A stretch of DNA of 53,590 nt from an uncultured Planctomycetia bacterium (lineage in GTDB: Bacteria > Omnitrophota > Gorgyraeia > 2-02-FULL-51-18): positions 1-53,590 of the forward strand of contig CAYJXB010000002.1 in the NCBI GenBank assembly GCA_964374005.1, in the 5' to 3' direction. A model generated the notes under the pieces. The model was not told where the DNA came from and made no database searches. It saw nothing but the letters and a program-made list of their open reading frames with translations. Both the position numbers and the translations under genes were made by a program. Below are positions 1 to 46,873 of the stretch, in pieces. The stretch's first letter is position 1, and the number at the start of each line of letters is the position of its first letter.

Positions 1-17
1 AGGCATTCCTTGACAAC

Positions 18-419
18 ATGTTTTCCAAGATGTCACAAGAATCTGAAACGAAGGCCGTCCTTATCACTGGCGGTTATCACGCGCCGAATCTCAAGAGTCT
101 CTTGAAGTCCAAGAAAATTTCCTACGTCTCGATCCGCCCGCAGGTATTTCATGAAACCAACCAGAAGCGATACGAAAAACTGCTTTTGAACCAACAAATT
201 GATCCGACACTCGTGAACCGCTATATCGCCAATGTTGGCAAATTGCAGTCACATAGCACAGCCAACATGCTTAGACCTTGGATGGGTAAAGATATGCCAT
301 TTTTGGCGGCAATCGCCGGGGAGTTTGGCGCGCCGTTGAGTGTGTTGGGAGTCCGGAGTTCGGAGTTCGGATTGCCAAAAATCTCCCCACTCCCAACTCC
401 AAGCTCCGAACTCACACCG
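18..419 (+). other. Module 0: C-terminal end of an unidentified domain cut by the window edge; weak resemblance to the GxxH...LLxxxGYxV C-terminus of TraB/GumN/Tiki-type putative proteases
   Basis: KAVLITGGYHAPNLKSLLKSKKISYVSIRP resembles the second GxxH motif region of that superfamily. This rests on motif memory only. Confidence 0.2.
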
Positions 420-9400: not shown

Positions 9401-12400
9401 CATCGGTGGTATCGTCATGCAATATCTTAGGAGAAAAGGTTTTACGGATGTGCTTGACAGTAAAGACGGCAACACTCAAATTGAGGCGGCGTCCTTAAAA
9501 GCTTATCTCAATTTTTTAGATGCTTTCGGCGCGCGGGCCGTGGAACTGACACCGCTTCTTGGGCTTCCCGCTGTTTTTGACCCGTCGACTCTTGCGGTCA
9601 CCTACGGTGATGGTGTTGGTTTTCTCAAAGCGTGGCAAAAGACAATCGGCGGGAATGTGATGTCGGGGGACGCGTTGTGGAAGAGTCTGAAATTAGCAGT
9701 CGGCTATGTTGATGAAGAAGGAAATGTTGGTCGACAGCCGGACCTTTCGCAATTTTATAGCCCGGAAAAGATCCTCTATCATGGGCATCAAGGCGCTTAC
9801 TGGAATGATAAAAAACTACGGACACTGTTGCAAGAAAACAAATTACGGCCTGATGTTACGGTCCTACCCGCAGGTTTCATCGGGGAGGAATATATCCGGA
9901 CTGAGGGGCATCATCATCTTTCAGGCCTGCCCGAAGTTTACGAGACCGTGTACGGGAGGAACGGCTACCTGCTTTTCAAGACGGTCTCCGAAGATTCCGA
10001 AGATATTGCAGATGTCATGTTTATCTTTGCCGAAGAAGGGGACCACGTCCTCTTTCCACCGGGTTATCAGCATATTAGCATTAATATCGGCGCGACGCCA
10101 TTTGTGATGACGGACTGGGTGAGTACGGAAGCACGCCCTGACTTTGAATATATCAAACGCCACCACGGTGCGCCCTATTGGGTGGTGAAAGGGCCGGATG
10201 GTCAACCCCGCTTCGTGCGGAACCCGCGCTATAAAGGAAAGGTCCCCGAAATCCGGTTGCTTCGACCTGCCGAGGAGATCCCCGAGTTCGGATTGAAGAA
10301 AGGTGTTCCGATGTTCAACCTCGTCAGGGAGGGGAAGATAGGTCTTCTTCGTTTCCTTAACGACACTAATGAATCGGGACGTTACGATGCCATTTACCAA
10401 AAGGCTTTTGTGCCGACTCAAACCCGCTCCGAATCTGGCGCGCGGCTCTCCACAGAGAAGGAGAGCCTGGCGCAGCCCGCCTTAACTTTGGCGGGCGCGC
10501 GGCTGGCGAGTTTTGACGATAAGCTTGAACGAGCTTTGCAAAACTCAAATAGGGAACGCGTCGATGAGCTCGTCCAAAATGATCTACTCAAGGGCAAACA
10601 ATTCCGTCGGTCAATCGGAACAAATGACGCTCGATTTACAACCGGACAAATAGAGCTCCTCGATCTAGCCATCGAAGCGGCATCCGGCGCCCGTCTCGCC
10701 CATCAAGCCGTCATCGCAACCCCCGCAAATCCCGCCGCGTCTCTTAACCAGGACCAGCAAAAACGTCTTTCTCAGCTCGCAGGCCATGAGGTCTCAAGAG
10801 CCTTTATCGAATCCCGTGTTTTTACCTTTTCATTAAGTGACTTTGACCTTTACGCCGAGACACCCAAGAATAAAGAAGATCAGCAGAAGGACGCTATTGC
10901 TAACTTTGTGAAAGGCGCCTGGTCCGCCGGCCGTGAATCTAGGGAGCTTGAAGGCGTGACCCCAGACGAACAAAAGACGGCTGAAAACGATCTCAGGGAT
11001 TCTTTGTCTTTACTTCAAAAAGCCGCTCAACATCTCCCTACCGGCAGTCTGAACCATGTCCGATTTGCTTTTGTTCTTGAGTCCGCGACTCCTAATTCCG
11101 AGGAGGTTAAATTCCTGACCGAGGTTCTGGGGTATCCTCCCCAAACCCACTCTTACTATGGCGAGGCGTCTCCTGAGCTTTACAAAGATGACACAGGTTC
11201 TGTGGTCGCCACCGCCGGCACCTTCCCTTATACAAAGGACGGTCAAGAAGTCAAAGAGCCCCAAACAATCTATCTAAGTGTCGCCTACCTCAAACGCTTG
11301 GCCCAGCTGATTCACCAAGACCAGCCAAGTGCGCAAGAAGTAATAAATCGAGTATCCCATGAGGTAGCCACTTTAAATTGGAACTTATCCGCTGAAGGCG
11401 GTCTTGAAGCCCGAGGCAATGAAGCCATTGAATCCAAAGTAAAAGCGCTCTATCAAAAATCCAAAGACGACCAGAGAGCCAAATGGATTGATCGTGACCA
11501 TAACCGGACCACCGAGCTTTTTGTCAGTGTCGATCTGTCAAAAGTTCTTGGACCGGTCACCCAGATCCCTGAATCGCTGGTTAAGAAAGCCGAGACACTT
11601 CTGGATCAACTCAAGAAACAAGGCGTGATTAAAGACCATTTTATCACGCGCATCGGAAACTACCTTCTCTTGGATATCTCTCATAATGACGGAGCCAAGA
11701 GTCAAAGGATCTCGAGCCTATTAGACGCTGTTTTATTTGGCGCTTTAGATGAGACGGTAAACCAAAGAGGACTTGCCCCTGTTCCGTCAGAGGCTACCCA
11801 GCTTCGCGCACTCCTGAATTGGAAGGAAGGGGAGGTCCGCTATAGCAAGCGGCCCTCACAGCCGACACTTCGCCAGGTCATTGTGGGCGGCGCTGAAAAA
11901 TCCTCGGATGGGATTTTATTTGACCTTTATGCCAGTCCCAATATTACAACCCAACAAGCCATTGAAGGCACACACGGGACTTACTTTGTAGCCCAGAATA
12001 CCGAAGCCAGACAAAAGGGTTTGGGCTTCACCTTGCCCGGGGGCAACAATAACAGGGGCCTGTTCCATCTTCTGGCCGTGTTAAAAACCGCCATGCATAC
12101 GGTGAAGGCCATCTTTGTCGGCAAAACCTCAAGGTTCCCCGTCGATGAACCCGTTGCCCAGGCCATCTCTCTGGGGGATCTTCAAGTTATTTTTTACCAT
12201 TCCCAAGCAGGCGCCGAAGCCGTGGGAGGGATCTCTGGCCCCGGAACCGCTCCGCGGATTATCGAAGGGACCCATGGAAGAAGGCTCTCTCTTAAACCCG
12301 TGACCCTGAAAGAGGCGGTGAATCTTACCCCTGAGAAGCTAAGAGGCGAGTTTGCCGGTTATGCCCCTACCATTATATGGGGAACCCAAGTCTTCGATAA

Positions 12401-15400
12401 AAACCCGCGCCGGACCGGTCAGTTCGATGAAATCGTCGATGTGATCGAGGAAAGCGCCGAATTCAGCGTCAGGGGGGACCTGGATTATATCCGGGATGAG
12501 TTCGCCAAGCTCTTGAACGAACAAGGTTTTTCACAGCCGGCCTTGACGACTGAAAAAGCCAATAGCCAAGCCGGGAAAGCCTTTGATGAATTTAAGGCCC
12601 GGCCCGTCAAGAGACCTAAGCAGATCGAATCCAAAGAGGGAAGACTGACAAGTTCTATTTTTAAGGCTGACATCGGGTCCGCCCTGGGACATACCAAGCC
12701 GCTGTCGGTTTACATGGCCGTGGCAAGGGCTATTCTTGAAAAAGCCAAACGGGACGGTCTGATTAAAGATTATCTGGTGAAACGTAAATCCGTTGATCGG
12801 GAAGCGACCGATGAAAAGAATGGTGTGATCGAATTCCGTGTCGGGGATGATATCGAACTTCAGATCATTCACGACCGGCCTATTCAGGACAAAGAGATCC
12901 ATGGCCTGGCCTGGCGCGCCTTCTGGGCGGCCGGTTGGACGGTCATCGCGGATGATGTCTTGGAGCGCACCCCCTACGGGCTTCTTCAGGACCTTCCCAA
13001 TGCCAAGGATTTAGATTCTTTTGAAGAGGCTAAGATCGATCCTGCGACCTTCGAGATCATGAAGGAAAATTTAAAAGCATTATCCCTTGAGAACCCAAGA
13101 GCTATCGATGAGGATGAGCTCAAAGCCCTTGAGGAAAAATTCCACTCTGAATGGGAAGCGCAGGCTTCCGGTAAGCGCGTGTCAAAGAAAAAGGCCAGCG
13201 CCGCCTTCACCTTTACGGGCAATGTCAAAGGCTCAGGGATTGGTTCGGCGGAAGGTTATGTCGACCCAGGCAACTGGACCGTTTTTGCGTTTGATAAGGC
13301 CTCGCCGGGTGCTTTCAGCGTGCCCTTTATGAAGGCCGCCGAACAGGCCCTGAAAGACGGTGTTTACACCAATCTTCTTTTTGAAGTCGAGAAAGTCCGT
13401 CCTGAATATCAAAATGAAAAAGAGGTCCCGCAGGAACCGATCATTCTTGATTATGCCAATCTCGAGGAAAGAAAACTGATCGAGCGAATGCTTGGCGCCG
13501 TGAATGAATTCCAGATAAAGGCTATCCGTACCGTCGATGCCAACGGCCGTGTCAATCTTGTCGCCTCCAACTCAACCGACAGGCTCTATCAGGTCACTTC
13601 CGGCATATACGCCGGCAAAGATGACCCCGCCGGCATTATGGATACCAAGTTCGCCGAATATACCGTGCGGTGGATGCAGAACAATCTCTTTATCACTGAA
13701 GGCGACGAACGCGGTTCCCACTGGGCGTTTGTGTTACCGGTGGCGATGGACAAATCCTCACCCGGCACTCATTCAATCCCCACGGTGGTCGCCGTGAGCT
13801 TTACGGTGACACCCCATGGCAAGATAGAAAATGTCATTGACGTATTTGAGAACAACAAATTCGATGACATCCGCGCCAAAGCCGCTTATTTTAACTGGGC
13901 CTTTATCCGATCCGTCGGAAACATCGGCCCTAGAGGTGACGCAAGCTCCGTGGAATATACTTATCCCCTGTGGCTTAATATCAATAAGATCACCGCGGAC
14001 AATTCTCCTTACAAGGTTACGATTCCAATACGGGAAGCTGAGACACAACCTTCGGCATTACCGACCGCAACAACGGAAGCAAAGCCAATAACAGATTGGG
14101 AGAATAACATTCTGGCAATTCTTAAGGTTGAGGGCATTCATAATATTGAGGAAATACGTAAGGCAGTTCGCCAGGCTACACATCTTTATAGTAATCATAG
14201 AAACGATCTAACAAATCAGCAAAAAAAAGATTTAAAAGAGGCGATAGATAAACTGCGCAGACAAGTAGAAGGCGCGCGGCTGGCGCAGGAAGAGACAATG
14301 CAGCGTCTCGGTTTCAAACTAGCCGAGGGAGAGCAGAACAGAATCGCTTACAATCCGGATTTTACGCCGCTAGTGCTTAATGCCGATGTATGGATTCAGC
14401 CGCATGCGGTCACATCATTAAATGAGAATTCTATCATTCAAGGTAAAAGAGCGGATGAGGTCGCTAAAGCCGCTAACGACAATATCTCTACTTCGCTTAC
14501 CCAAACGGGCATTCAACAAGCAATACAGAGTTCAAACGAGCTTTGGCAGACTATCGGGAAGAAACTTATAAGCAATGAGTCCGTTATTTTCTTGCGAAGC
14601 CCTCAAAAGCGCTCGAAGGAAACGGCAGCACAATTTGTTGAGGTGGCTCGCACTCACGGAATCACCATCGATAATTCTTCCGACGAGAACGTTTCAAATA
14701 AAGCAGCGTATCAAGTCAAAATCGATGAAAATTTATTCGAGTTGGAGGTTGGCGCGCTCGAATCCAAATCCAGAGCTCAGCTCGAAGAAATCGAAGAATT
14801 GAGGACGGTTTCTAAACGTCAGAAAGAAAGAGACGCGTTTATGAAACCGCCCGCAGGTCAAAATTTACCGGAAGGCCAGAGTTTTATCGAGTTTGCCGAT
14901 CAAGTCGATCGTTTTTTGCAGCACATCAATAAAGAATATGCCGGAAAAACAGTCGTTGTCCTTGGCGCAAGCGCTGTTTGGACAGGCACAGCAAGAACAC
15001 TTCTCAGAACAAGACAGGCCAGGGAATTGTTCAATAAAAATTCATATGTGGATTGGAACGATAGAACGCTTGCACCACACAATAACCGTGAAAATCTGAT
15101 TCACCTGAATGAGGAGATTGCACCGACCGGCGCGCGGCTTGGAGAACGGCTAGAAGCTAGAGGCCGTCAGCTAGTGGCAAAAGAAATCCCTTCAGCCATT
15201 AGCCAACAGCCATTAGCCAATAGCCAACTAGGTGCGCGGCTGGCGAATTTGAGCGCGGATCTGGAGCATCTAAATAGAGGCGATGAATTCGTTCTTCAAT
15301 ATCGTGATAAGGATAAAAATTTACAAAGCATTCACGGTGTTGTTGACTTTGTTTCCATCGGCATAATAGTGACGGGTGATATTCTAGTCGTTTTAGGCAA

Positions 15401-18400
15401 GGGGGTTCTTACCGATAAAGTGGTGAACATAACCTATTTTCCCATAAAGCAGGGCAAAGTATTAAGCGAATCCACGAATATAGAGACGGATTTTAACAGC
15501 ATTGTTCGCGTCAACGCTCCGCCGGCATACGGGAAAAACACCGGCGCGCGGCTGGCGGTGACCAAGTCTTCTAAGGACCAGAGTAATATTTTGATGATTC
15601 CGGCCAAAAAAATTCTGACCGATTTGAGCGCGGATCAATTGTATGAATTAGCCGTCCAGGGCGAGAAGTTACGAGCGGCACAATTCGAAGATGAAATTAG
15701 AACCGACCCGACCGTTGCTGCGATGGCGAATACAAAGGGGAAACCTCTTGCGGATCTTAAGATCGCGCAGTTTAGAGCCGCTTTGCAGGATAATTTTAAA
15801 ACGGCCTATGGCAGCACGATTTACTATAGCAATATCACAAACCGCAGCGCTAAAAAGACATCCCATTATGAAATTGACGGGTTCACGGTAGGCACGGATC
15901 AAATCGCGGCCGATCCGAAGTTCGCACAGAAACTGCTTGCGGCCGTGGAAGATCATTTAAGGAGTCGTGATTTGATCCAAGTGGACCGGAGCGTGGGGCA
16001 GGACCCGTCCGATTCAAGGCATTTCCGGCTTATAGTGGACAGCAAGTATGGCCGTTTGGCGCATGAGCTAACGGCTCTGCATTTTCCCGCCGCGCCCGGT
16101 GCTTCTTCGGCGACGCCGGATATTTTAACGATTGATCTGCCCGATTTTGATTTATCCCAATACGGTTTAGCCGATCAAAAAGAGCCTTACATTTTAAGAA
16201 TTCCCAGCCGCGGGATAAATCTGGTGCTCGGGACGGATTATTTTGGTGAAATTAAAAAATCTGCTCTAACGTCCAACGGTTATCTGGCTAAAGAGGCAGG
16301 CAATCTGGCGCTTCACGCCGGAAGCAAGATCGTGCAAGTCTTGGATGCAAAAACGGGGAAAATCGTCACCAAGCGGGTCATCGCCTCCGGTCTTTCCGGA
16401 ACGGGCAAGACAACGACGCTTGTCGGTACGCAGGGTTTAAGCGGCGACGAATCTTCGACCATGTTTCAGGATGATTTTATCGAATTGCGTATTGAGCGCA
16501 GCGCCGCCGGGAAAATTACCGGGGTGAAAGTCAAAGGATTGGAAGCGGGCGTTTACTATAAGACCGAACGCCTTGATCCGAACAAAGAACCAGAATTATT
16601 TAAGGCCGCCAAACACCCGAGCACGATTTTGTCGAATGTATGGATGAACCAGGCCAAGGACGGTTTGGTGCCAGATTATGACAATACCGATATTACGGGC
16701 AATGGCCGCGGTGTGGTGAGCCGCGCACAAATCACGGATCATCCTTCCGTGGATATGGACGGTTTGGATATCGTCGTTTGGTTGACGCGCCGCGAGACGA
16801 TCGTGCCGGCTATGGCCAAATTAAACCCCGACCTGGCGGCGGCTTTGTTTTTGCTCGGCGAATCCGTTATCACTTCAGCGGCTGACCCGACACGGGCCGG
16901 GGAATCCGTGCGTGAGGCCGGATTTAGCCCGTTTATTGTCGGGTCCGTTTCGGCTGAAGCCAATTTATTGTTGGAAATTTTTGAAGCGCTTCCTCAGATC
17001 GAAGTGGTGTTGGCAAATACCGGCAAAGTCGGGGCGACTTACGGCGAAGGCGCCAAGCCGGGCGCGAAAATTGATGTGCCGGATTCCGCCGCGCTTTTTA
17101 AAGCGCTCTTTCGCGGGAATATTGCGACACGCCCTGATCCGGATTGGGGATATGAAGTCGCTTACGAAGTGCCGGATTATGATATTTCCAGACTTGACCC
17201 GGGCGTTCACTACACTCCGGATGGAATAGCGGCTCTGACCGCAAAACTCCGCGCAGAACGCGTTCAGTGGCTTCAAAGATTTCCCGGGCTAAACCCAAAA
17301 ATCATAGATGCTATTCAAAACCCCAACGCCGGCGCGCGGCTTGGAGAACGGCTAGAAGCTAGAGGCCGTCAGCTAGTGGCAAAAGAAATCCCTTCAGCCA
17401 TTAGCCAACAGCCATTAGCCAATAGCCAACTAGGTGCGCGGCTGGCGGATGTTAATGCCTTAAAACAGGAGATCAAAAGGGCGGCGTCCAATTTATTAGC
17501 CATGGTTAGTGACAAATCTTTTGAAGAGCGTGTTTCTCATTCCAGCATTTCTTCGGGCGATATCGCCAAATTCTTGGACATAACTAAGCAGTTGGAAACG
17601 GTTCTAAAGCAGTTCCTGGATGAGCGGGATCCGCGTTTCTATGAAAATTATGATGCTCTTGTAGACGATGTCGATCAAGTATTCCGGGATAAGACGAATA
17701 TCATTTTTGACTATGCTTTTCAGGAAGGTGCGGAAGATTTTATGGTTGCGATAGGACCTTTCTACCAAGCTTTCATCGAACTGGTTAATTCTTTGAACGC
17801 GTTGAAACTTTCAAGAGGCGCGCGGTTGGCGAGTGAGCAAGGGCAGGTGGATTTGCTTAACGAGGTCAAAGACTATCTTAATTCTCCCGAAGGTATTACT
17901 CGACGGGAGAAAGGAGATACGCGAATCATTTATCTCAAATCAGTGCTTAAGGGTACCGTCAATAAACCCCAAGGCCAGTGGCTTACGGACGAACAAATAA
18001 GGGGTATAAAGACCCATTTGCGGGATTTAAAGCAGATAGCTTATACCGATCCGCTGGTTCTTAAAAAATGGGCGAAAGGAAAAATCAATGCAAATATTCC
18101 GGCAGAGAACATCGCCGAGGCGTTGTTCGAACGAATCGCGCGCGTTCTCGAATATCAAAAGACCGGACATGATGCGACGGTGTGGATGCGCACGGCGGCA
18201 CCCGCCACGACGGAAACAATCCTCGCTATACGGGATGCAGCTAAACAAAAGGAAGCGGCTCTCCGGTTCATTCAAATGATCTTGCCCGTTGCGCCGGAAA
18301 AAGTCGATGCCTATCAAGCAAGAGCCATCACTGAACTGGCGGTTCAATTAAGACTCACGGACACAGTCGTCATTGATTCTCTCCGTATGATTATCGAAGC

Positions 18401-20930
18401 TGACAAGAAACGCGAACGTCCATTTTCAAATCCCCAGATTTTAAGAAATGCTCAGAAAGCCTTATCGCCTAGCCAAGAGGGCGCGCGGCTGGCGTTGGTT
18501 TTGACCCGCAAAGAAGGCCAATCTATTCTGATCGGTGACAACATCAGGGTAAAAGTGGAACGAATTAACCGGACCGGCCGTGATAAATTTATTGTACTTT
18601 TGGGCACCGTGGCTCCTAAAAATGTGGCGGTAAACAGGCAGGAGATCTATGATGCCAAGATCAGGGATAACACTCCGCTTGTGAAACCTGAAGACCGACA
18701 CCGTACGGAAGGTACGCATCCGGTTTATGCGCGCAAAGAGGGTGAATCCATCGTGATCGGCGGCCCCGAAAATAAAATTACGATTAAAGCGACAAATATA
18801 GTATACGATCGGCTAAGTCTTGTGATTGAAGCACCCAAGTCCGTCCGTATTTTGCGCGCGGAACTCCGCGGCGCGCGGTTGGCGGCTAACGATCGCGTTC
18901 GCCAGATACAGGAAAGATTGGTCGAGATTGAGACAAAACTTAGAGAATTAAGCAAACAGGAAAGATATTTAGAAAAGCAGCCTGTGCTTAAACCGAACAC
19001 GATCGGCGTCGAAATTGGCAAACTCAATAAAGAAAAGAGGGTATTAACAGAAGAACTCGGACGATTGCAATCTTCAACGGATGGCGCGCGGCTAGCGTTG
19101 GTGTTAGGGACAAAAGAAGGTGACACCATTGAAATTTTTGATAAAAATAAGGACAATCCGCTTTACACACTTAGAATTCAGAAATACTTGCCTGGTAAGG
19201 GAAGCGAAAGATCCCATGTCCTTCTTGAGGTCGAAGATCGAAAGTCCAAGCAATTCTCTTCGCTGGTTCTTTTTCTAAGAGGATATGAACCTGGAAGCGA
19301 GCAGTATGTCACAACGTTGGACAGCCAAAAACAAATAAGCCTTTTCTTCTCCGGATTAGCCGAAGGCAGGACTAACCAACCTATCAAACTCGCTTTCACG
19401 GCCCCGAGAGACATCTTAATTTACAGAAGCAAGCTAATCTCCGGTGCGCGGCTGGCGAATGAAGAGATCCCTACCGCAGAAAGGTTAGCTGCCGCAAAAG
19501 AGTTATACGAACGTATTCTCGAACTGATTACTTCTCCTCTACTGCAACCGCGGAAAGAACAATTGACCGACGGGATCAAAGAATTAGAAGAGACGATCCG
19601 CGCCTTAGGCGTTGCGCGCAACAAATTGACTCCACAAGATAAGGGAGTGGGCTTTGATGCCGACATTTTAAAGCAAATAGAAAGTTTAGAAGAACTATTA
19701 CAGGAAGTAAGATTAAAAGAATCCGGCCCCCGGCCCTACGGGCCGATAGGCCCGGAGGGCGCTCGACTCGTAGCAGCGCCGAAGGAAACGCGTTTCCCGC
19801 AAGAGCTATTGGACAGTGTGAAAAGGCCTCTAGTTTTTCGCGATAATTCCTTAAACGCGTTATTGAACCGCGAGCGTGATAATGCAGTCAGTAATGTCTC
19901 TGAATTTGGTCCAGAAGTCGTTGAGTCCCCTGAGCTAAAGGCCTTTGCCCTGGAGCTTTTTGTTGCAAGGACGCGGGACATTCGTTCGAGCAAGCTTTTC
20001 GCGCTCGCCTCATTCGTTTTTGAACCGGTTGTCGTCAAAGAAGGAGAGAAAGAAGTCTATTACTTGAAAGTCAGGAACCAAGAAGGACAGGGCAATAAGA
20101 TTAAGATACTGTCGTCCACTCAGCTTGCAAAAGAGGTAAGGTCGGAACTCACGAAGCTCCGCGCAACAGAAGTTCATGCTGAGAATGTTCAACAGGGCCT
20201 GGTCCAGGCGATCACCATCGCGGATCACGAGATTCGCCAGGCCGTTTTTTCAAATCTTTCGGATGTTTCAAGCCCTGTGACCTATGAACTGCCATTAAGC
20301 ATTTTCTCCGGATTTCAGTCAAAAGACGCTTCTCAGTTTGAAGTTCACGCCGAATACCTTGTTCTGCGAGCCCTGGCTTTCCTGAAACAAAGGGAAAATC
20401 GCCAAAGCCATTTGTATCTAAGCGGTTTAGAGGTCCTCACGCAAGCTCAGCAAACATTTTTCCGTGAAGCGGTTCAAAAATATCGGGCCGAGAATCTGAT
20501 CTTGTTCGGGACGGCGAAAGGCGATGTGATCGTGCAATTCGTGGACGCAGATACCCATCGTGAGGAGCTAAATCTGGATGTTTTCCGGAAAGTTTATATT
20601 CCCATTAACCGTATCCAAACAGAGGAATTGGCCGACTGGGCGGGCCGTTTCTACATCAGCGGCGGGCTCGCACATTTCTTTTCTTCGGGTGGTCAGCTGG
20701 ATTTCAAGGGCTACGATAAGACAAAGATCAGTCGGGTGCTGGATGTTTACAATTCCAGATCCTACGAGGCGATCTCAGACAGCGAGAAATTTGTCCAAGT
20801 CCTATCCGGACAAGAAAAGAAAGTAGCCGTCCTGAGGCGGTTTGTGCTGGGTAAAATTTACAAGATTCCGTTTGATAATATATTCCTGGCTTTCAGCACC
20901 ATGAAACGCATGCTAAGTCAAGCCGCTTAA
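18..20930 (+). CDS. Giant multi-enzyme fusion ORF (at least 6970 aa; central-carbon polyprotein-like), probably 5-prime incomplete in this window
   Basis: No in-frame stop for 6970 codons. The frame is also open from nt 3 to the ATG at 18, so the gene may start upstream. The translation contains, in order, TPI, isocitrate lyase, enoyl-CoA hydratase-like, malate synthase, PMM/PGM-like, cupin PGI, FBP aldolase/phosphatase x2, histidine phosphatase, ATP-PEPCK and CsrA-like modules. Twenty-one G-A-R-L-A-type pentapeptides separate the modules. Stop TAA 20928-20930 is followed by a hairpin terminator. Confidence 0.9.
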   Translation: MFSKMSQESETKAVLITGGYHAPNLKSLLKSKKISYVSIRPQVFHETNQKRYEKLLLNQQIDPTLVNRYIANVGKLQSHSTANMLRPWMGKDMPFLAAIAGEFGAPLSVLGVRSSEFGLPKISPLPTPSSELTPGARLAGKEDIWISGDQRLGDRGIGVSGTSTQQLTDSTAQQSLGARLANDLKAINLSGRPFWLSAEEGSKLVTTLLAELPANQREADILRPVQQYAKGGFNPSDVPPTTLRLSGHLIEFRNRSAGTWEKLHVDPADIFLIDVDGEIVIFPGLKNKLSTELSPEVLQGQVAYAEVNPLDRDKAALLQQLDQAESFSRKPVIGGNLKLEFESPIQHEQLIHEIAGSLEALKNQRPNLDLGSIDVFIAPQDAHLEALARAIQLLELRGEIRRGLIKLGAQNVSHGEKGAHTSGLPTAQTLKNLGVEYVIVGHSEAREELRETDQEINQKIKNLIAIGGLKPVLAVGESAGQRQAGQTEGFVRMQVLRGLDGLTADQILTSGLVIAYEPIWAIGPKAIGAASPEEANRIQKIIRQALLEQFGLEVASKTRIQYGGSVKPENVASFEQELNIDGGLIGGAAKKGDTFVPILSAFAASGARLATAISAEKREKIASINRFLNQPRFNRIKANRLWTADDLYEVMVEEGVFEAPKLQNILADKLYNAAAEAQRTRSFVATGGVMDGPNAAAMAEAGAKILYFSGWQMSHHYGEPDLAKYPLDTVPKRIAEIYKFLQNKDTNQKVVFRQRIKAIEKIFDELFREIRAKSPAELNQAKAAWVARFVSAATENGKSKWIYVNATRENPNLYIGAIFEKIVEEAIAQKSSTSQQKRDALREASYFALKAQLVDYLIPIFADGDTGHQSVKEMVRLFVAANSASIHMEDQVQGEKKCGHMSGKVLVSISEHMKRLVEARKEADKLGSNLVIIARTDAEAAKLLQSNDDIRDHYFILGTSTKNLPKLKYIIQLARRDFSDSQIRLDELAGQHPDLVAAIRKVWTLRGVITGRRVEPNQLFSNEAGYTLDAEEIWNSRESIEFGEDRLTMDTVLDTTYDDSTVASLSVQEILNLKPADIEDEIAAMRALSDLWNSKAQLKTFAQTVADAIQDEAKRKQWLALTNPLNESTETQKVPRSIEELREAAKAEFGVEVDWDWEPARTFEGYYQIDKKLGVVNSSVRMREFLKIADIGWMEQDGPNKKHSAELSANVKAVPQGKDAFLSLNLSPSFDWSNPEKWKDSLTEEQIANIKAAKALKGFNWNKQDTWRKYSKDILFFLDMLENFSPEMGKLGYQIQFVTIFQDHNSTLNTYRVGMDLVSRGAAGYVRNVQQEEQRLDSRFERHQTAAGVPRVDGEDRLSNRGASDLSAGGKDSTEHGFAALGIQLGEEAGLGAFTGEEVLFSAENGVAFITLNRPTSGNALTLEMVRQLRTYLAQVKTDPNIKAVVLKGVGTNFSTGDDIKSVVRAIHEGKIGFVDRFYEEQYALLQEIMDLSRAKAVISFVNGWVISSALGLVSSGNFIVADETTKFAALDTGLGLPLGNANPYHMRLRVRTPAARYYGLTGDSFNVAESNALGFENIFYSPATNLAELESDIKKLVSELSRRGFDADDILRELGVILKQRTGEVDRTSPKLEGINKYFGSDKATLLEIVQSLEAQRNTDPFAEQTLKILQLRSPIALQVTLSLIDEVTSFKDALDHQLKAVKYLATQNPDYAEGVQAILGFDVSAGTKTEKREPRFTGEMGKVDVAELTKAFGISVGARLAEISFREDDKVGNVEGAYKDIYTPETLSVLKKLAPLTAEQNDLMKKRYNRREDRAANKKDITFLNPNSYIPGTKIYVRDARKGNFEGASIPQDLQRQWIQGTGPAARPRETLERSLRNIAYALLSGADGWMFDGEDALGQVDTMSLDNIRNLTLAIHKDPIFMKVAENLAQELVRDGFQPAGFDWKKQLDFTTKLYRTRGLHLNDRHTIVTIDGKEYAMSATIVDMVLYIVNNYERLLDEGSTPTFYLPKLQTAEEAAFMAKIMDALEDSLIYKDKPLERGTIKAFVLVEQLEESFQLMEIRAALGKHFVGFNTGRWDYINSVSDAKAWDEKFINPNIEEITMTYGYMGNYEDRVRRASYTPDRNGNTVHWIGGMEPNIPVGSKEGVEAAMKKAVAGGQREFNAGAGGKWVASPKMVPIVRPIWEKGFAGQTNADGTPKVNNLEMKVKPLTYAAKDATGLTKLPEAPRTIRGARNLLSVGLQYGNAFERGFAAAALKPADFFGNDSILYLMEDAATGEIRLSILHEWVHKKAVITEDDSELGVKAGDVFTDELFKKLLEQEYQKLLSADNKDVHDDSKTTTLPIARQIVETYVLDPVKFAWYIDLLNIVLNVSNLDEATRRINLYTDTWKTTGKRITHNLDFALAGARLAAEKVAAREKFVISEKRLTLKAVLRQITMREPLTVEVERGTTVILSKAVTALGPNETALLLNRDDVVMVNGEHPTVSLEGRQQELIGKYSSTLSKPLSQTDAKLVRQMLRDYDYRSRGVGAPSPAVWFRWGIVWGQMALDRAAKSGVKKRTVVLANDGRIVDPEIIEALAAGLAYAGLDVIYTSAKHMDTATSYSWSVKQFNPLASIFITSSHVVAEMGEKIQGGKISISDIEGRLSSLSTREIKDESYKSYGKITPGTSSASTVSGEIVEADIRENVIRNNVLIGHAFSKPGALAQLDEAYRRAPDDILTVIKKWEDAIPAGSLPLDGMAIVVDGRHTESGSLGVESLRRLGANAIGLNTDVYALGGEHGADPSARENLSDLMKRMHDERVLIGLSFDLDGDRGAIVVRFEITQAEFDKLTDDEKEKCLLTDGRISRFLILPPDNLEAALIRPLLEQGGYRDLAEKTGGKKLAFVRDVLSSDMVDVIAKQNGAESFLTDSGYVFLKEKARELEKQGYLVVMLGERSGHTWTRVTGDYENPIAVAIQFAVMARQYQTAHPESVNPFMDFFKANTVPFKQSLRFQPEISMSLLRKLSGVDDWRFELNPDGKTLETKPTQVVIAGARNRVIRSLISYFRPGKTFGDLTIDELVYQKPSTSPDKMYRFVEVRFKTADGLPAGKFVMRASSNDPTFVASYETPARKGETLESPSVHDRYISIGGIVMQYLRRKGFTDVLDSKDGNTQIEAASLKAYLNFLDAFGARAVELTPLLGLPAVFDPSTLAVTYGDGVGFLKAWQKTIGGNVMSGDALWKSLKLAVGYVDEEGNVGRQPDLSQFYSPEKILYHGHQGAYWNDKKLRTLLQENKLRPDVTVLPAGFIGEEYIRTEGHHHLSGLPEVYETVYGRNGYLLFKTVSEDSEDIADVMFIFAEEGDHVLFPPGYQHISINIGATPFVMTDWVSTEARPDFEYIKRHHGAPYWVVKGPDGQPRFVRNPRYKGKVPEIRLLRPAEEIPEFGLKKGVPMFNLVREGKIGLLRFLNDTNESGRYDAIYQKAFVPTQTRSESGARLSTEKESLAQPALTLAGARLASFDDKLERALQNSNRERVDELVQNDLLKGKQFRRSIGTNDARFTTGQIELLDLAIEAASGARLAHQAVIATPANPAASLNQDQQKRLSQLAGHEVSRAFIESRVFTFSLSDFDLYAETPKNKEDQQKDAIANFVKGAWSAGRESRELEGVTPDEQKTAENDLRDSLSLLQKAAQHLPTGSLNHVRFAFVLESATPNSEEVKFLTEVLGYPPQTHSYYGEASPELYKDDTGSVVATAGTFPYTKDGQEVKEPQTIYLSVAYLKRLAQLIHQDQPSAQEVINRVSHEVATLNWNLSAEGGLEARGNEAIESKVKALYQKSKDDQRAKWIDRDHNRTTELFVSVDLSKVLGPVTQIPESLVKKAETLLDQLKKQGVIKDHFITRIGNYLLLDISHNDGAKSQRISSLLDAVLFGALDETVNQRGLAPVPSEATQLRALLNWKEGEVRYSKRPSQPTLRQVIVGGAEKSSDGILFDLYASPNITTQQAIEGTHGTYFVAQNTEARQKGLGFTLPGGNNNRGLFHLLAVLKTAMHTVKAIFVGKTSRFPVDEPVAQAISLGDLQVIFYHSQAGAEAVGGISGPGTAPRIIEGTHGRRLSLKPVTLKEAVNLTPEKLRGEFAGYAPTIIWGTQVFDKNPRRTGQFDEIVDVIEESAEFSVRGDLDYIRDEFAKLLNEQGFSQPALTTEKANSQAGKAFDEFKARPVKRPKQIESKEGRLTSSIFKADIGSALGHTKPLSVYMAVARAILEKAKRDGLIKDYLVKRKSVDREATDEKNGVIEFRVGDDIELQIIHDRPIQDKEIHGLAWRAFWAAGWTVIADDVLERTPYGLLQDLPNAKDLDSFEEAKIDPATFEIMKENLKALSLENPRAIDEDELKALEEKFHSEWEAQASGKRVSKKKASAAFTFTGNVKGSGIGSAEGYVDPGNWTVFAFDKASPGAFSVPFMKAAEQALKDGVYTNLLFEVEKVRPEYQNEKEVPQEPIILDYANLEERKLIERMLGAVNEFQIKAIRTVDANGRVNLVASNSTDRLYQVTSGIYAGKDDPAGIMDTKFAEYTVRWMQNNLFITEGDERGSHWAFVLPVAMDKSSPGTHSIPTVVAVSFTVTPHGKIENVIDVFENNKFDDIRAKAAYFNWAFIRSVGNIGPRGDASSVEYTYPLWLNINKITADNSPYKVTIPIREAETQPSALPTATTEAKPITDWENNILAILKVEGIHNIEEIRKAVRQATHLYSNHRNDLTNQQKKDLKEAIDKLRRQVEGARLAQEETMQRLGFKLAEGEQNRIAYNPDFTPLVLNADVWIQPHAVTSLNENSIIQGKRADEVAKAANDNISTSLTQTGIQQAIQSSNELWQTIGKKLISNESVIFLRSPQKRSKETAAQFVEVARTHGITIDNSSDENVSNKAAYQVKIDENLFELEVGALESKSRAQLEEIEELRTVSKRQKERDAFMKPPAGQNLPEGQSFIEFADQVDRFLQHINKEYAGKTVVVLGASAVWTGTARTLLRTRQARELFNKNSYVDWNDRTLAPHNNRENLIHLNEEIAPTGARLGERLEARGRQLVAKEIPSAISQQPLANSQLGARLANLSADLEHLNRGDEFVLQYRDKDKNLQSIHGVVDFVSIGIIVTGDILVVLGKGVLTDKVVNITYFPIKQGKVLSESTNIETDFNSIVRVNAPPAYGKNTGARLAVTKSSKDQSNILMIPAKKILTDLSADQLYELAVQGEKLRAAQFEDEIRTDPTVAAMANTKGKPLADLKIAQFRAALQDNFKTAYGSTIYYSNITNRSAKKTSHYEIDGFTVGTDQIAADPKFAQKLLAAVEDHLRSRDLIQVDRSVGQDPSDSRHFRLIVDSKYGRLAHELTALHFPAAPGASSATPDILTIDLPDFDLSQYGLADQKEPYILRIPSRGINLVLGTDYFGEIKKSALTSNGYLAKEAGNLALHAGSKIVQVLDAKTGKIVTKRVIASGLSGTGKTTTLVGTQGLSGDESSTMFQDDFIELRIERSAAGKITGVKVKGLEAGVYYKTERLDPNKEPELFKAAKHPSTILSNVWMNQAKDGLVPDYDNTDITGNGRGVVSRAQITDHPSVDMDGLDIVVWLTRRETIVPAMAKLNPDLAAALFLLGESVITSAADPTRAGESVREAGFSPFIVGSVSAEANLLLEIFEALPQIEVVLANTGKVGATYGEGAKPGAKIDVPDSAALFKALFRGNIATRPDPDWGYEVAYEVPDYDISRLDPGVHYTPDGIAALTAKLRAERVQWLQRFPGLNPKIIDAIQNPNAGARLGERLEARGRQLVAKEIPSAISQQPLANSQLGARLADVNALKQEIKRAASNLLAMVSDKSFEERVSHSSISSGDIAKFLDITKQLETVLKQFLDERDPRFYENYDALVDDVDQVFRDKTNIIFDYAFQEGAEDFMVAIGPFYQAFIELVNSLNALKLSRGARLASEQGQVDLLNEVKDYLNSPEGITRREKGDTRIIYLKSVLKGTVNKPQGQWLTDEQIRGIKTHLRDLKQIAYTDPLVLKKWAKGKINANIPAENIAEALFERIARVLEYQKTGHDATVWMRTAAPATTETILAIRDAAKQKEAALRFIQMILPVAPEKVDAYQARAITELAVQLRLTDTVVIDSLRMIIEADKKRERPFSNPQILRNAQKALSPSQEGARLALVLTRKEGQSILIGDNIRVKVERINRTGRDKFIVLLGTVAPKNVAVNRQEIYDAKIRDNTPLVKPEDRHRTEGTHPVYARKEGESIVIGGPENKITIKATNIVYDRLSLVIEAPKSVRILRAELRGARLAANDRVRQIQERLVEIETKLRELSKQERYLEKQPVLKPNTIGVEIGKLNKEKRVLTEELGRLQSSTDGARLALVLGTKEGDTIEIFDKNKDNPLYTLRIQKYLPGKGSERSHVLLEVEDRKSKQFSSLVLFLRGYEPGSEQYVTTLDSQKQISLFFSGLAEGRTNQPIKLAFTAPRDILIYRSKLISGARLANEEIPTAERLAAAKELYERILELITSPLLQPRKEQLTDGIKELEETIRALGVARNKLTPQDKGVGFDADILKQIESLEELLQEVRLKESGPRPYGPIGPEGARLVAAPKETRFPQELLDSVKRPLVFRDNSLNALLNRERDNAVSNVSEFGPEVVESPELKAFALELFVARTRDIRSSKLFALASFVFEPVVVKEGEKEVYYLKVRNQEGQGNKIKILSSTQLAKEVRSELTKLRATEVHAENVQQGLVQAITIADHEIRQAVFSNLSDVSSPVTYELPLSIFSGFQSKDASQFEVHAEYLVLRALAFLKQRENRQSHLYLSGLEVLTQAQQTFFREAVQKYRAENLILFGTAKGDVIVQFVDADTHREELNLDVFRKVYIPINRIQTEELADWAGRFYISGGLAHFFSSGGQLDFKGYDKTKISRVLDVYNSRSYEAISDSEKFVQVLSGQEKKVAVLRRFVLGKIYKIPFDNIFLAFSTMKRMLSQAA
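1008..1832 (+). other. Triosephosphate isomerase module (preceded by an unassigned extension of about 150 aa, 561..1007)
   Basis: GGNLKLE (cf. NWK), GAQN, VGHSEAR (cf. GHSERR), AYEPIWAIG, YGGSV, GGLIGGAA. The catalytic N/K/H/E positions are retained. Confidence 0.8.
1848..4151 (+). other. Isocitrate lyase module (long form, about 770 aa)
   Basis: YFSGWQ, FADGDTGH, HMEDQ, KKCGHMSGK (ICL signature K-[KR]-C-G-H), IIARTDA, and the C-terminal HQ..AG...STEHGF. It begins directly after a GARLA junction. Confidence 0.85.
4206..5291 (+). other. Enoyl-CoA hydratase / 3-hydroxyisobutyryl-CoA hydrolase-like (crotonase fold) module
   Basis: EEVLFSAENGVAFITLNRPTSGNAL, AVVLKGVGTNFSTGDDI, and a long ECH_2-like C-terminal extension. 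Confidence 0.7.
5307..7238 (+). other. Malate synthase (A-type) module
   Basis: WMFDGEDALGQ, RGLHLNDRH, YLPKLQTAEEA, IKAFVLVEQLE, GFNTGRWDYINS, GGMEPNIP, GKWVASPKM, MEDAATGEIRLS. Confidence 0.85.
7579..9527 (+). other. Phosphomannomutase/phosphoglucomutase-like module (preceded by an unassigned extension of about 108 aa, 7254..7578)
   Basis: YDYRSRG (cf. YDIRG), VVLANDGR, ITSSH phosphoserine loop (cf. TASHNP), SFDLDGDRGAIV metal loop, GERSGH. Confidence 0.65.
9543..10436 (+). other. Cupin-type (archaeal-type) glucose-6-phosphate isomerase module
   Basis: TEGHHHLSGLPEVYETVYGRNG and PPGYQHISINIG match the cPGI motifs T-x-G-H-x-H...E-x-Y and PP-x3-H-x3-N. Confidence 0.7.
11508..12530 (+). other. 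Degenerate FBP aldolase/phosphatase-like module (probable pseudo-enzyme copy)
   Basis: It is collinear with the next module (LFVSVDLSKVLG vs IFKADIGSALGH; ITRIGNYLLLDISH vs RVGDDIELQIIH). The K and D of the KADIGS motif are replaced. Confidence 0.45.
12645..14030 (+). other. Fructose-1,6-bisphosphate aldolase/phosphatase (class V FBPase) module with insertions
   Basis: IFKADIGSALGH, VGDDIELQIIH, TGNVKGSGIG, YAGKDDPAGI, GDERGSHWAFVLPV. Confidence 0.75.
14286..15128 (+). other. Histidine-phosphatase (phosphoglycerate-mutase superfamily) module with atypical catalytic motifs
   Basis: WIQPHAVTSLN (cf. RHGET), LTQTGIQQA, SPQKRSKETA (cf. SPLxRAxxTA). The Arg of RHG and the distal His (VLGASAVW vs SHG) are not conserved. 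Confidence 0.5.
15129..15245 (+). repeat. 117-bp perfect direct repeat, copy 1 (GARLG - 29-aa spacer - GARLA)
   Basis: Base-for-base identical to 17331..17447, read directly from the sequence. Confidence 0.95.
15558..17330 (+). other. ATP-dependent phosphoenolpyruvate carboxykinase module
   Basis: LGTDYFGEIKK, LHAGSK, SGLSGTGKTTT (kinase-1a loop), FQDDF, GVYYKT, ITGNGRGVV. Confidence 0.8.
17331..17447 (+). repeat. 117-bp perfect direct repeat, copy 2
   Basis: Identical to 15129..15245. The two copies bracket the 99-aa unknown module plus the PEPCK module. The offset of 2202 nt is a multiple of 3. Confidence 0.95.
18495..18869 (+). other. Tandem CsrA-like (carbon storage regulator) RNA-binding module
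   Basis: LVLTRKEGQSILIGDNIRVKV...APKNVAVNRQEIY (cf. CsrA MLILTRKVGESI...APKEVSVHREEIY), then a second copy ARKEGESIVIG...LVIEAPKSVRILRAEL. The first copy begins exactly at the GARLA junction. Confidence 0.75.
19098..19442 (+). other. Second, more diverged CsrA-like module (apparently also two half-copies)
   Basis: LVLGTKEGDTIEIF directly after GARLA; C-terminal IKLAFTAPRDILIYRSKL (cf. IGIEAPKEVSVHREEI). Confidence 0.5.
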
Positions 20931-20956
20931 TCTGATACTTTCTTAATCTTAACTAA

Positions 20957-20985
20957 GGGCGGGCCAAAAGCCCGCCCTTTTCCTT
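20957..20985 (+). terminator. Rho-independent terminator of the giant ORF
   Basis: GGGCGGGC-caaaa-GCCCGCCC followed by TTTTCCTTTT, 27 nt after the stop codon. Confidence 0.75.
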
Positions 20986-21001
20986 TTGTCCTCCCATTGA
21001 G

Positions 21002-21052
21002 GGGTCAGAGGGGTCAGACCCCTCAAATGCAGGGGTCTGACCCCTCTGACCC
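21002..21052. repeat. 22-bp perfect inverted repeat built from GGGGTCAGACCCC-type units
   Basis: gggtcagaggggtcagacccct - caaatgc - aggggtctgacccctctgaccc. A related unit is at 43073..43085. Confidence 0.85.
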
Positions 21053-21363: not shown

Positions 21364-21433
21364 CCCCACCACTCTTTTGCAACGATTTTGAAAAAATCGG
21401 TCCGCATTCGCGGACCAAAGGAGTGGTGGGGTG
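21361..21433. repeat. CCCCACCAC/GTGGTGGGG junction element, copy A
   Basis: TGA-CCCCACCACTC ... internal hairpin ggtccgc-attc-gcggacc (21399-21416) ... GAGTGGTGGGG-TG. It fills the whole vapB-vapC gap. Its last G is the first base of the vapC GTG. Confidence 0.85.
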
Positions 21434-24067: not shown

Positions 24068-24131
24068 CCAGTTTACCCGGCATTTTTTAACCTCGTTTTT
24101 TGTTCTTATACTTGCCTCGTCGTGCGCCCAT

Positions 24132-46868: not shown

Positions 46869-46873
46869 TAAAG

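Follow-up and report, generated by a model that had tools for sequence, protein, structure and literature searches.

The window, by which we mean the whole 53.6-kb stretch of DNA analysed, opens within a giant modular ORF on the + strand (positions 3..20930; listed as 18..20930, 6970 aa), which comprises at least 6975 codons and whose 5' end is cut by the window edge. No in-frame stop occurs between base 3 and the ATG at position 18, and residues 9-84 share 55% identity with residues 396-470, an internal part of gene 1 of the related locus L029. The gene, of at least 21 kb, encodes a chain of about 20 complete proteins: central-carbon enzymes, two CsrA proteins and unknown modules. Pfam identified TIM, ICL plus ECH, malate synthase, PGM/PMM, cupin GPI, FBPase_3, His_Phos_1, PEPCK_ATP and two CsrA modules, and active-site motifs can be read in the translation for TIM (AYEPIWAIG, VGHSE), ICL (KKCGH) and PEPCK (GLSGTGKTT). 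The chain ends with a C-terminal domain of ~390 aa (19758..20930, + strand, ending in ...QAA), common to the relatives found except L029 gene 1. This domain, the sole widely shared module, has no conserved catalytic residue, no PDB fold match and no Pfam or NCBIfam family; its AlphaFold model has a pLDDT of 68, higher in the C-terminal half. Directly after the stop codon lies a terminator-type hairpin with a U-run, followed by a perfect palindrome with 22-nt arms (20955..21052, + strand; z -11). No such giant-gene family was found in Pfam, NCBIfam or the literature searched, and profile searches detected no protease domain in any family member or neighbour.

The module borders are occupied by a pentapeptide, GARL[A/G/S/V], which occurs 20 times in frame in the giant ORF, compared with 0-2 times in each other frame of the whole window. 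A motif search placed the junction starts at positions 420, 546, 1833, 5292, 7239, 10437, 10494, 10686, 14271, 15129, 15231, 15543, 17331, 17433, 17817, 18480, 18870, 19083, 19443 and 19758 (all + strand; the set spans 420..19772), where they separate complete enzymes, the two CsrA modules and unknown modules; a decayed copy, GARAV, is found at 9528 (+ strand) of the same ORF. The junction DNA is almost invariant (GGCGCGCGGCTGGCG, with the motif core GCGCGGCTGGC) and its codon choice is strongly biased, with CGG in 18/20 junctions (background 13%, P 3e-14) and GCG likewise in 18/20 (background 29%, P 2e-8); the 24 nt on either side carry no information. With 20 copies of this 15-nt motif, the ORF is not the otherwise non-repetitive gene that the first-pass annotation took it for. 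Across the family the consensus reads [G/A][A/S]RL[A>S,G,T,V]: all 74 junctions have R and L, and a small residue follows Leu in 74/74 (position 5: A 64, S 4, G 3, T 2, V 1). In the related locus L027 five Arg and five Leu codons are used at background frequency, i.e. the peptide is kept but the codons are not, and this codon spread indicates that the junction peptide is under selection. In three of the four lineages, one of them with a COX1 only 46% identical, the junction DNA is nonetheless fixed far beyond what the peptide needs.

As in a polyprotein, complete proteins follow one another end to end with one consensus motif per border. The A of GARLA falls on Met1 of CsrA in each of the two CsrA modules, and position 2 of the Pfam CsrA profile aligns with the residue straight after GARLA, while the ICL, malate synthase, AceK, PGM and class-I aldolase modules start within a few residues of their native N-termini. 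Because of the alignment with CsrA Met1, the near-native N-termini and the retention of the peptide without its codons in L027, the junction peptide is most likely a processing site. Cutting at this candidate site, between L and the small fifth residue, would release proteins of native size.

The relatives of the giant gene include P0111, P0112 and P0113, which possess 9-21 junctions each together with the shared C-terminal domain, and the modules of the relatives follow the same metabolic theme (ICL, malate synthase, AceK, PGM, GlpX FBPase, class-I aldolase). L026 is the orthologous locus in a congener, with the same gene order (YceI 90% and LpxA 86% identical); however, its giant gene shares with the window ORF only a coiled-coil module and the diverged C-terminal domain, and the other modules differ. 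L031, from a second strain, matches L026 at 99.5% identity downstream of nt 9570 but shows no relation to it on the upstream side, i.e. it differs in whole modules up to ~47 nt before the junction at 9617; further assemblies have their break points at 9599 and 9944, likewise close to junctions. L026 also contains a repeat of its own: nt 1-114 equal 2737-2850 exactly, with an in-frame spacing of 2736, and the identity ends at the last base of a junction motif. These comparisons lend independent comparative support to the proposal of the first-pass annotation that modules move together with their junctions, as blocks in such genes appear to have been swapped at junctions in related bacteria; the support concerns the gene family and not movement of the PEPCK block itself. 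None of the relatives found carries the set of His_Phos, 99-aa, PEPCK and X modules described below, so the comparison with related genomes that had been recommended revealed analogous variation only in the congener (L026/L031) and no presence or absence of this block.

The sole long repeat detected in the window by a repeat search contains two of these junctions in each copy. Positions 15129-15245 and 17331-17447 had been reported as identical base for base, and a self-comparison of the window agrees and extends the identity to 119 nt (15127-15245 = 17329-17447; two nt leftward, none rightward). The identity begins and ends at the outer edges of the two junction motifs of the repeat; in the 120 nt on either side there are only random matches, and the flanks are unrelated. 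A 26-nt core of the repeat has only two sites in the window with up to 3 mismatches allowed (0 expected). The copies lie on the same strand with an offset of 2202 nt (734 codons) that keeps the frame, and on translation each reads GARLG-ERLEARGRQLVAKEIPSAISQQPLANSQL-GARLA, as previously stated. Copy 1 (15127..15245, + strand) comprises GARLG (15129-15143), a palindromic spacer of 87 nt (15144-15230) and GARLA (15231-15245), and sits between the His_Phos_1 module and a 99-aa module. Copy 2 (17329..17447, + strand) comprises GARLG (17331-17345), the palindromic spacer (17346-17432) and GARLA (17433-17447), and sits directly before a module that we term X. Both copies and their order are taken from one assembly of one genome.

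The module upstream of copy 1 is a histidine phosphatase (phosphoglycerate-mutase-like, Pfam His_Phos_1; 14286..15128, + strand), bounded by the junctions at 14271 and 15129. The bracketed segment (15246-17330, 2085 nt) contains the 99-aa module and the PEPCK module that had been placed there, with one GARLA junction between them. The 99-aa module (15246..15542, + strand) has no significant Pfam match (best E 0.13), no NCBIfam family, no PDB sequence match and no homologue in a search of 5.8 billion proteins. The simple GARLA junction (15543..15557, + strand) has the sequence GGCGCGCGGCTGGCG. The PEPCK (ATP) module (15558..17330, + strand, 591 aa; Pfam PF01293, E 7e-52) carries an N-terminal extension of ~80 aa, matches the PDB structure 1j3b and retains the P-loop; its best public relatives are stand-alone PEPCKs with at most 41% identity. 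The composition of the block is ordinary (GC 0.504 vs 0.492, GC3 0.54 vs 0.52). Module X (17448..17816, + strand, 123 aa) shows 27-36% identity to a pair of modules in L029 gene 2, and its AlphaFold model (pLDDT 83) is all-helical, a predicted four-helix bundle with no specific fold match. Both module X homologues of L029 gene 2 are preceded by a double junction, which makes 3/3 with the window copy; by this comparison module X is the conserved partner of the double-junction linker.

Each copy of the repeat is thus a "double junction": GARLG, a 29-aa spacer and GARLA. The 87-nt spacer is a long near-perfect palindrome (z -8.0 on the + strand, -6.8 on the - strand) that alone folds at -38.8 kcal/mol (+ strand) and -45.7 kcal/mol (- strand), a palindromic structure of the kind found in MITE/RPE-like elements. 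The first-pass annotation made no mention of this palindrome, which opens two rival readings of the locus. The spacer flanks share GG(C/T)GCGCGGCT, direct repeats of 8-11 nt that coincide with the junction motif required by the GARL peptide, and insert and flanking repeat together are 102 nt long, which is divisible by 3. A second double junction (GARLS, 14 aa, GARLA; 10437..10508, + strand) forms two short hairpins, each of which uses part of the junction motif (fold z -3.9), and is among the most structured 120-nt windows of the ORF. Of all windows of this size in the ORF, the terminator aside, the double junctions show the strongest structure, although the one at 420/546 is unstructured (z -0.4). 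In L029 the linker at nt 11173-11292 also reads GARLG...GARLA and its spacer forms a hairpin (z -5.0 on the + strand, -7.4 on the - strand); it resembles the window spacer (z 3.5, 0/500 shuffles) with 3 compensated pairs, and both flanks of this double junction (11173/11278) carry the rarer GGCGCCCGGCT variant. The other double junction of L029, at 6835/6919, is unstructured (z 0.15). The hairpin linker has no Rfam match, and its promoter and terminator signals do not rise above chance.

Copies 1 and 2 are duplicates of a double-junction linker, and our preferred reading, which we hold with slightly more than even confidence, is that they represent the footprint of recombination in a gene for a modular polyprotein, with probable protease sites as its junctions. 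Since L029 has GARLG-hairpin-GARLA with a significantly similar spacer before a module X homologue, copy 2 (17331) probably occupies the ancestral position and copy 1 (15129) would be the recent duplicate, which may be the product of recombination that the junction motifs guided. Either short-homology template switching or gene conversion could have placed a copy of the 102-nt linker in a simple junction, or a block composed of the 99-aa module, PEPCK and the linker could have come in through one crossover inside the linker. Each route would leave exactly the observed structure and keep the frame, and copying of the linker alone and movement of the PEPCK block are equally possible. The very recent duplication or gene conversion suggested in the first-pass annotation agrees with the perfect identity, although one genome does not separate recency from ongoing conversion. 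The outcome would be a 2202-nt in-frame unit between direct homologies of 119 bp, 100% identical, in the same orientation and on one molecule. This is well above the minimum homology of ~25-30 bp for RecA-type exchange, and the expectation that this unit could be deleted or amplified by homologous recombination without breaking the ORF comes from established knowledge of the process. The 15 nt of a single junction are short for RecA-dependent exchange, which leaves the junction-guided step mechanistically loose, and the strong palindrome is not required by the recombination-footprint model. A model with protease sites alone does not explain why junction DNA is fixed beyond the need of the peptide in three of the four lineages.

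The palindrome itself could be a non-autonomous mobile element (MITE or RPE-like) inserted twice, recently and independently, into simple GARLA junctions, in which case the GG(C/T)GCGCGGCT repeats would be a target-site duplication and the PEPCK block would not be a mobile unit. Palindromic elements inserted in frame within genes, where they add a peptide, are known in Rickettsia (PMC10969869), and the spacer resembles them and intragenic MITEs as a palindrome of ~100 nt, near-perfect on both strands, that lies in frame in coding sequence and adds a peptide. It is also bordered by direct repeats, one of which brings its length to a multiple of 3. The same layout with 11 identical flanking bases recurs at 10437/10494 in the window and at 11173/11278 in L029. 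The genome evidently tolerates such inserts, as a GC-rich palindrome of 33-42 nt encodes AGH(E/K)AGRPLAG inside three unrelated ORFs of the same window, a second and clear RPE-like case. Unlike such elements, however, the spacer is known in only two copies within the 53.6 kb, both at junctions of the giant gene; in its DNA the outermost bases do not pair as inverted repeats and clear terminal inverted repeats are lacking, and the flanking "duplication", which differs at one base (C/T) between the two flanks, is a motif needed by the peptide anyway (GARL takes 11-12 nt). The homologous linker at the same place in the distant L029 speaks for an element long in residence and against two recent insertions, and on balance we regard a mobile element as unlikely. 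Alternatively, the hairpin linker could be a functional nucleic-acid element whose two copies stay identical through gene conversion or selection and not because they are recent, either an mRNA structure at module borders that serves processing or makes ribosomes pause, or a DNA hairpin serving as a structure-specific recombination site. The position and shape of the hairpin are conserved between the window and L029 while the encoded peptides do not resemble each other and the alignment of the nucleotides does not follow the codons, and the prominence of the double junctions among the structured windows and the conservation of junction DNA beyond the peptide in three lineages point the same way. 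Yet only two homologous linkers are available, which leaves the covariation (3 pairs) anecdotal, and the similarity score between them may be inflated by shared arm composition. The two unstructured double junctions and the lack of Rfam, promoter and terminator signals also speak against this reading, as does the finding of no recombinase gene in the 32 kb downstream of the giant ORF. Moreover, the two strands fold with about the same strength, which singles out neither of them and therefore no RNA, and we consider a functional element quite improbable.

Finally, the repeat (R) could have been traversed twice by the assembler, the real genomes being A-R-C, where A and C are the outer flanks, or having another loop copy number, or the bracketed block (B) could come from a co-occurring strain. 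Several observations would fit this reading: the window ORF and that of L026 run off contig ends; in L027 and L029, where two giant ORFs lie in tandem, the contig ends within the upstream one; a number of assemblies of the L026 organism stop close to junctions; and the L026 contig starts inside its 114-nt repeat. With only A, B and C attached to R, however, the sole path that uses all of them is A-R-B-R-C, and a contig with both copies implies k >119 or the use of read support. The reading frame and the junction grammar continue unchanged across the two R/B borders and the two outer ones, and the composition of B matches the rest of the gene. We find an artefact or mixture very unlikely, and the mixture version would still mean a biological presence/absence polymorphism at the repeats.

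The recombination footprint in a polyprotein gene that we favour can be compared with several known systems. The modules of the MARTX toxins (rtxA1 of Vibrio) are freed by cleavage behind a leucine in the linkers between them (PMC5218395), and module content varies between strains via recombination within the gene (Kwak et al. 2011, cited in PMC5218395). The giant ORF is likewise a single array of independent modules whose content differs between congeners and strains, with an invariant junction Leu, here followed by a small residue at a putative cleavage site. Unlike MARTX, it contains no RTX/glycine-rich repeats in a Pfam scan of the whole ORF (the N-terminus lies outside the window), no CPD (Peptidase_C80) or other protease domain in the window ORF or its relatives, and no T1SS genes downstream; instead of toxins its modules comprise CsrA and housekeeping enzymes of the glyoxylate shunt and gluconeogenesis, and the fixed pentapeptide of its junctions shows conservation at the DNA level too. 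The polyproteins of picorna-, poty- and flaviviruses similarly consist of complete proteins end to end with a short consensus at the borders and small spacer peptides between some sites, but here the gene lies on a cellular chromosome, profile searches found no cis-encoded protease, and cleavage is putative. In polymorphic toxin, Rhs and CDI loci different modules occupy the same locus in close strains, with sharp break points beside a conserved motif (PMC3482391), a pattern similar to that of our related strains; those systems, however, swap C-terminal toxin tips together with immunity genes, whereas here the variable modules are internal and metabolic and have no immunity-like partner. Integron cassettes with their attC sites share with the giant gene the array of exchangeable units that have imperfect palindromes at their borders, conserved more in structure than in sequence, and a short conserved core at the ends. 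Unlike integrons, it has no IntI among the downstream genes and no GTTRRRY core (RYYYAAC / GTTRRRY; the motif core is GCGCGGCTGGC), its units are fused in frame in one ORF, and most of its junctions are without a palindrome. MPP prefers Arg at position -2, which would fit a cut after the L of GARL. The mitochondrial tandem precursor Arg5,6, which is cut internally by MPP (PMC8734313), is similarly a metabolic multi-enzyme precursor with an internal site for a general peptidase (putative in our case), but unlike the giant ORF it has two enzymes and one site and belongs to a eukaryotic organelle.

The PEPCK module of the giant gene is bracketed by two copies of a linker, 15127-15245 and 17329-17447, that match exactly over 119 nt. 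This bears out the identity of 15129-15245 with 17331-17447 described in the first-pass annotation, and their offset of 2202 nt (734 codons) does keep the reading frame, as had been claimed. The identity ends sharply at both sides, where the flanks are unrelated, and the pair is the sole long repeat listed by a repeat search of the 53.6-kb window; its 26-nt core has no further site there, with 3 mismatches allowed. The exact match over 119 nt and the lack of other occurrences of the core in the window rule out a chance origin. In the bracketed block, a 99-aa module for which no relatives were found is separated from the PEPCK module by a simple junction at 15543, and the composition and GC3 of the block are like those of the rest of the giant gene, which rules out a foreign origin; no close relatives of the PEPCK block or of the linker were found, only stand-alone PEPCKs at ≤41% identity. 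The description of the gene as otherwise non-repetitive fails: the pentapeptide GARL[A/G/S/V], here called the junction, occurs 20 times in the frame of the ORF, vs 0-2 occurrences for each other frame across the entire window. The earlier observation stands, while its interpretation as a recent duplication or conversion is supported in part and is extended here. As an object the repeat is not unusual; its interest derives from where it sits and from the comparisons that surround it.

The repeat sits in a chain of central-carbon enzymes delimited by junctions, a family that we did not find described in the libraries searched. The ORF is listed as 18..20930 (6970 aa), but its frame is open back to base 3 and its residues 9-84 find their match inside the giant protein of a relative, which means that the window edge truncates the gene and that the full gene is longer than shown. 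Pfam identifies modules for TIM, isocitrate lyase (ICL) with an enoyl-CoA hydratase-type domain, malate synthase, PGM/PMM, cupin-type GPI, FBP aldolase/phosphatase, histidine phosphatase, ATP-PEPCK and two CsrA proteins, while about 10 other stretches have no match in Pfam or NCBIfam. The active-site motifs of TIM, ICL and PEPCK are readable in the translation. The other 32 kb of the window correspond to an ordinary bacterial chromosome (LpxA, SodC, Liv transporter, DacA, Maf, GreA, cytochrome oxidase, Dus, BipA, MgtE and the CCA enzyme); the identity of BipA to diverse phyla is only ~52-54%, and exact look-ups of three window proteins gave no match.

In a full scan with HMMER, the last 1199 residues, queried against 1.84 billion representatives, retrieved three giant relatives of 3795, 2769 and 2395 aa, all studded with [G/A][A/S]RLA and ending in a homologous domain of ~350 aa (C-terminus ...QAA, QSA or VSA); four shorter proteins also carry this C-terminal domain. 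The relatives' DNA was recovered as the loci L026 (from a congener), L027/L028 and L029 (from a distant organism, COX1 only 46% identical), and their modules follow the same metabolic theme (ICL, malate synthase, AceK, PGM, GlpX-type FBPase, class-I aldolase, HEAT repeats). The C-terminal domain, whether queried singly or as an alignment, gave no match in word-indexed protein searches, nor did its alignment in a metagenome scan; the same scan with an alignment of module X, the 123-aa module that follows the second linker copy, returned only the L029 contig. A plasmid scan revealed no homologue of the C-terminal domain, which exhibits no conserved catalytic residue and whose model has no fold match, and a literature search found no description of such bacterial polyproteins. 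These features, [GA][AS]RLA junctions and a ~350-aa C-terminal domain without known fold, define a rare protein family, which has no annotation in the libraries searched.

The junction motif lies at module borders in every place where domains could be assigned. In both CsrA modules the A of GARLA takes the place of Met1, ICL and malate synthase begin near their native N-termini after the motif, and in the relatives AceK, PGM, aldolase and a lipoprotein-type signal peptide likewise begin after it, which argues that the modules are complete proteins and that the motif marks protein borders. R and L do not vary among 74 junctions, whose position 5 is A in 64, S in 4, G in 3, T in 2 and V in 1; this agrees with cleavage between Leu and a small residue, as in the MARTX toxins, which are cut after Leu between modules (PMC5218395). 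From the anatomy of the gene, and from that only, we infer that the polyprotein may be processed; a search of Pfam and NCBIfam revealed no protease domain in the unknown modules of the window or in the relatives.

At the DNA level the junction is nearly invariant (GGCGCGCGGCTGGCG). Its Arg codon is CGG in 18/20 junctions of the window, vs 13% in the background of the same gene (P 3e-14), and its Ala codon is GCG in 18 of the 20, vs a background of 29%, while the 24 nt on either side carry no information. CGG also prevails in L026 (18/21) and L029 (21/21); with the window included, it is used in 57 of 62 junctions across three lineages vs backgrounds of 11-19%, so that the codons are frozen beyond what the peptide alone calls for. 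L027 retains the junction peptide, but its codons are at background frequency (Arg: CGT 5, CGG 2, AGG 2, CGC 2, CGA 1), which indicates that selection acts on the peptide itself. The frozen codons are not explained by a protease site alone, and this leaves room for a DNA-level role of the motif. A Chi-like, genome-wide motif is ruled out, as the full motif is confined to the giant gene; a viral scan with the junction 15-mer gave only single, chance-like matches. One junction, at 9528-9542 between the PGM and cupin-GPI modules, has decayed (GGCGCGCGGGCCGTG, read as GARAV), with the first 9 nt of the motif kept and the rest lost. Outside the giant gene (21001-53590) the sub-word CGCGGCT has 12 sites on the + strand and a single one on the - strand, with ~3.8 expected per strand, a skew that is weak after multiple testing and may be caused by codon usage.

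Each copy of the repeat is a double junction, GARLG followed by a 29-aa spacer and GARLA, and the 87-nt spacer alone forms a long imperfect palindrome with a predicted folding energy of -38.8 kcal/mol (z -8.0) on the + strand and -45.7 (z -6.8) on the - strand, equalled by 0/200 shuffles. A 120-nt sliding scan reported this linker and the double junction 10437-10508 as the most structured parts of the ORF, ahead of ~301-440 near the junction at 420; all three are outranked only by the terminator directly after the giant ORF (20955-21052), a canonical hairpin with a U-run followed by a perfect palindrome with 22-nt arms, GGGTCAGAGGGGTCAGACCCCT. An internal promoter or terminator in the linker was ruled out, since nothing scored above shuffles, and the window has no match in Rfam. 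Long imperfect palindromes, built of ~8-nt units ending in CCAA and then of TTGG units, are found directly 3' of the stop codons of GreA (33188-33320) and of the second PG_binding ORF (46843-47000); a third intergenic copy, after the CCA-adding enzyme (53451-53513), retains only the CCAA arm, as the window ends there. The 3' arm of the linker matches one of these palindromes at 15/16 nt, and this link was rejected because the score of 25 barely exceeds the highest value among shuffles (22).

Module X, a predicted four-helix bundle of generic fold, has two homologues in gene 2 of L029, each preceded by a double junction, one of which is also of the type GARLG...GARLA with a 30-aa spacer. The spacer of the latter also forms a long hairpin (z -5.0 on the + strand and -7.4 on the - strand), and its nucleotide similarity to the window spacer is significant (0/500 shuffles reach it), although the encoded peptides are dissimilar and the alignment does not follow the codons; compensation is seen in three pairs. 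The comparison of these two sequences is suggestive of a hairpin linker common to the window and L029. We infer that the linker and module X would represent an old unit, and that the copy in front of the 99-aa module would be the derived duplicate.

Comparison with related genomes, a check proposed in the first-pass annotation, revealed independent evidence for a turnover of modules at junctions, in L026 and in L031, a second assembly of the same organism. L026 is orthologous to the window (YceI 90% and LpxA 86% identical, same downstream gene order), yet a single coiled-coil module and the C-terminal domain, strongly diverged, are all that the two giant genes have in common. This domain (19758-20927 in the window, 10208-11389 in L026) is only ~22% identical, vs 86-90% for the flanking genes, which implies either replacement by a paralogue or very fast evolution. 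L026 contains an exact repeat of its own, nt 1-114 = 2737-2850, spaced 2736 nt apart and in frame; the contig starts inside the repeat, whose identity stops with the final base of a junction motif. L031 is 99.5% identical to L026 downstream of L026 nt 9570 and unrelated upstream, where its modules differ; a junction lies at 9617, ~47 nt after the break, so that whole modules are replaced at the level of strains. In two further assemblies of this organism the breaks are at 9599 and 9944, close to junctions, and in total five independent assemblies (with the contig starts L032, L033, L034 and L035 among them) are interrupted within the giant gene or 13 nt beyond it.

We regard a recent recombination event, delimited by the junction motifs of a modular polyprotein gene, as somewhat the better bet for the origin of the repeat. 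Such an event would leave an in-frame unit of 2.2 kb between direct repeats of 119 bp, and it could have proceeded either by copying of the linker alone into a simple junction or by entry of the whole block through a crossover in the linker. The linker could instead be a MITE- or RPE-like palindromic element that targets junctions, and the window does hold another palindromic insert that lies in frame in three ORFs. This GC-rich palindrome of 33-42 nt, GCCGGCCA(C/T)(G/A)AGGCCGGCCGGCCTTTGGCCGGC, is found at 24127-24168, 31528-31569, 46609-46650 and 48456-48497; three of its four copies are in frame in unrelated ORFs (Maf, a PG_binding_1 lipoprotein and ORF 48398-49081), to which they add the peptide AGH(E/K)AGRPLAG, and the fourth overlaps the predicted start of SodC. 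It thus behaves like the Rickettsia palindromic elements, the comparison for in-frame palindromic inserts (PMC10969869). Within the window the linker has its two sites inside the giant gene only, and we consider a mobile element of this kind unlikely.

A hairpin under selection, with its copies kept identical by conversion, would agree with the strong fold of the spacer and with its counterpart in L029; we find this explanation slightly less likely still. An assembly artefact or a strain mixture might be suspected where several assemblies break in or near the giant gene; we judge either to be improbable.

Beyond the recombination footprint, we speculate, with little confidence, that the junction is a dual signal: a peptide cut by a dedicated protease and, as DNA (GCGCGGCTGGC, at times with the hairpin linker), a site of programmed in-frame cassette exchange, the 119-bp repeats being the fresh scar of one exchange. 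The protease would cut a "metabolic polyprotein" into stoichiometric enzymes of the glyoxylate shunt and gluconeogenesis plus CsrA, and the bacteria would gain, lose and reorder whole enzymes within one ORF, as in an "in-frame integron". If this is true, there are free-living Gram-negative bacteria in which central carbon metabolism and its regulator CsrA are encoded as a single giant precursor of exchangeable, junction-delimited modules, a design so far tied to viruses and MARTX-type toxins. From the duplicated linker one would expect variants in the population that carry the PEPCK block in zero, one or two copies; the linker also singles out the junction motif as a recombination break point and would identify a hairpin linker kept across distant lineages.

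Several other features of the family and of the locus were observed. Each of the two CsrA modules (18480-19457) is about twice the length of CsrA, and the translation of the first reveals two CsrA-like halves, so that it may be a single-chain CsrA dimer; between the two lies a 71-aa coiled-coil module, 72% identical to a module that is duplicated in L026. In the 2769-aa relative (P0112), which also begins with a signal peptide, a lipoprotein-type signal peptide with a lipobox (...LLAAASVMVLVGCGGG) directly follows an AARLA junction in the middle of the protein (residues 1205-1250, L027 nt 8405-8540). This suggests that modules were captured as whole genes, with export possible after processing. 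The 32 kb downstream of the giant gene contain three PIN-domain genes (21431-21808, 32273-32686 and 41209-41664), one of them between the giant gene and YceI; it is missing from the orthologous locus L026, where a BufA1/MbnB (bufferin-type) pair (12138-14167) is inserted after YceI instead.
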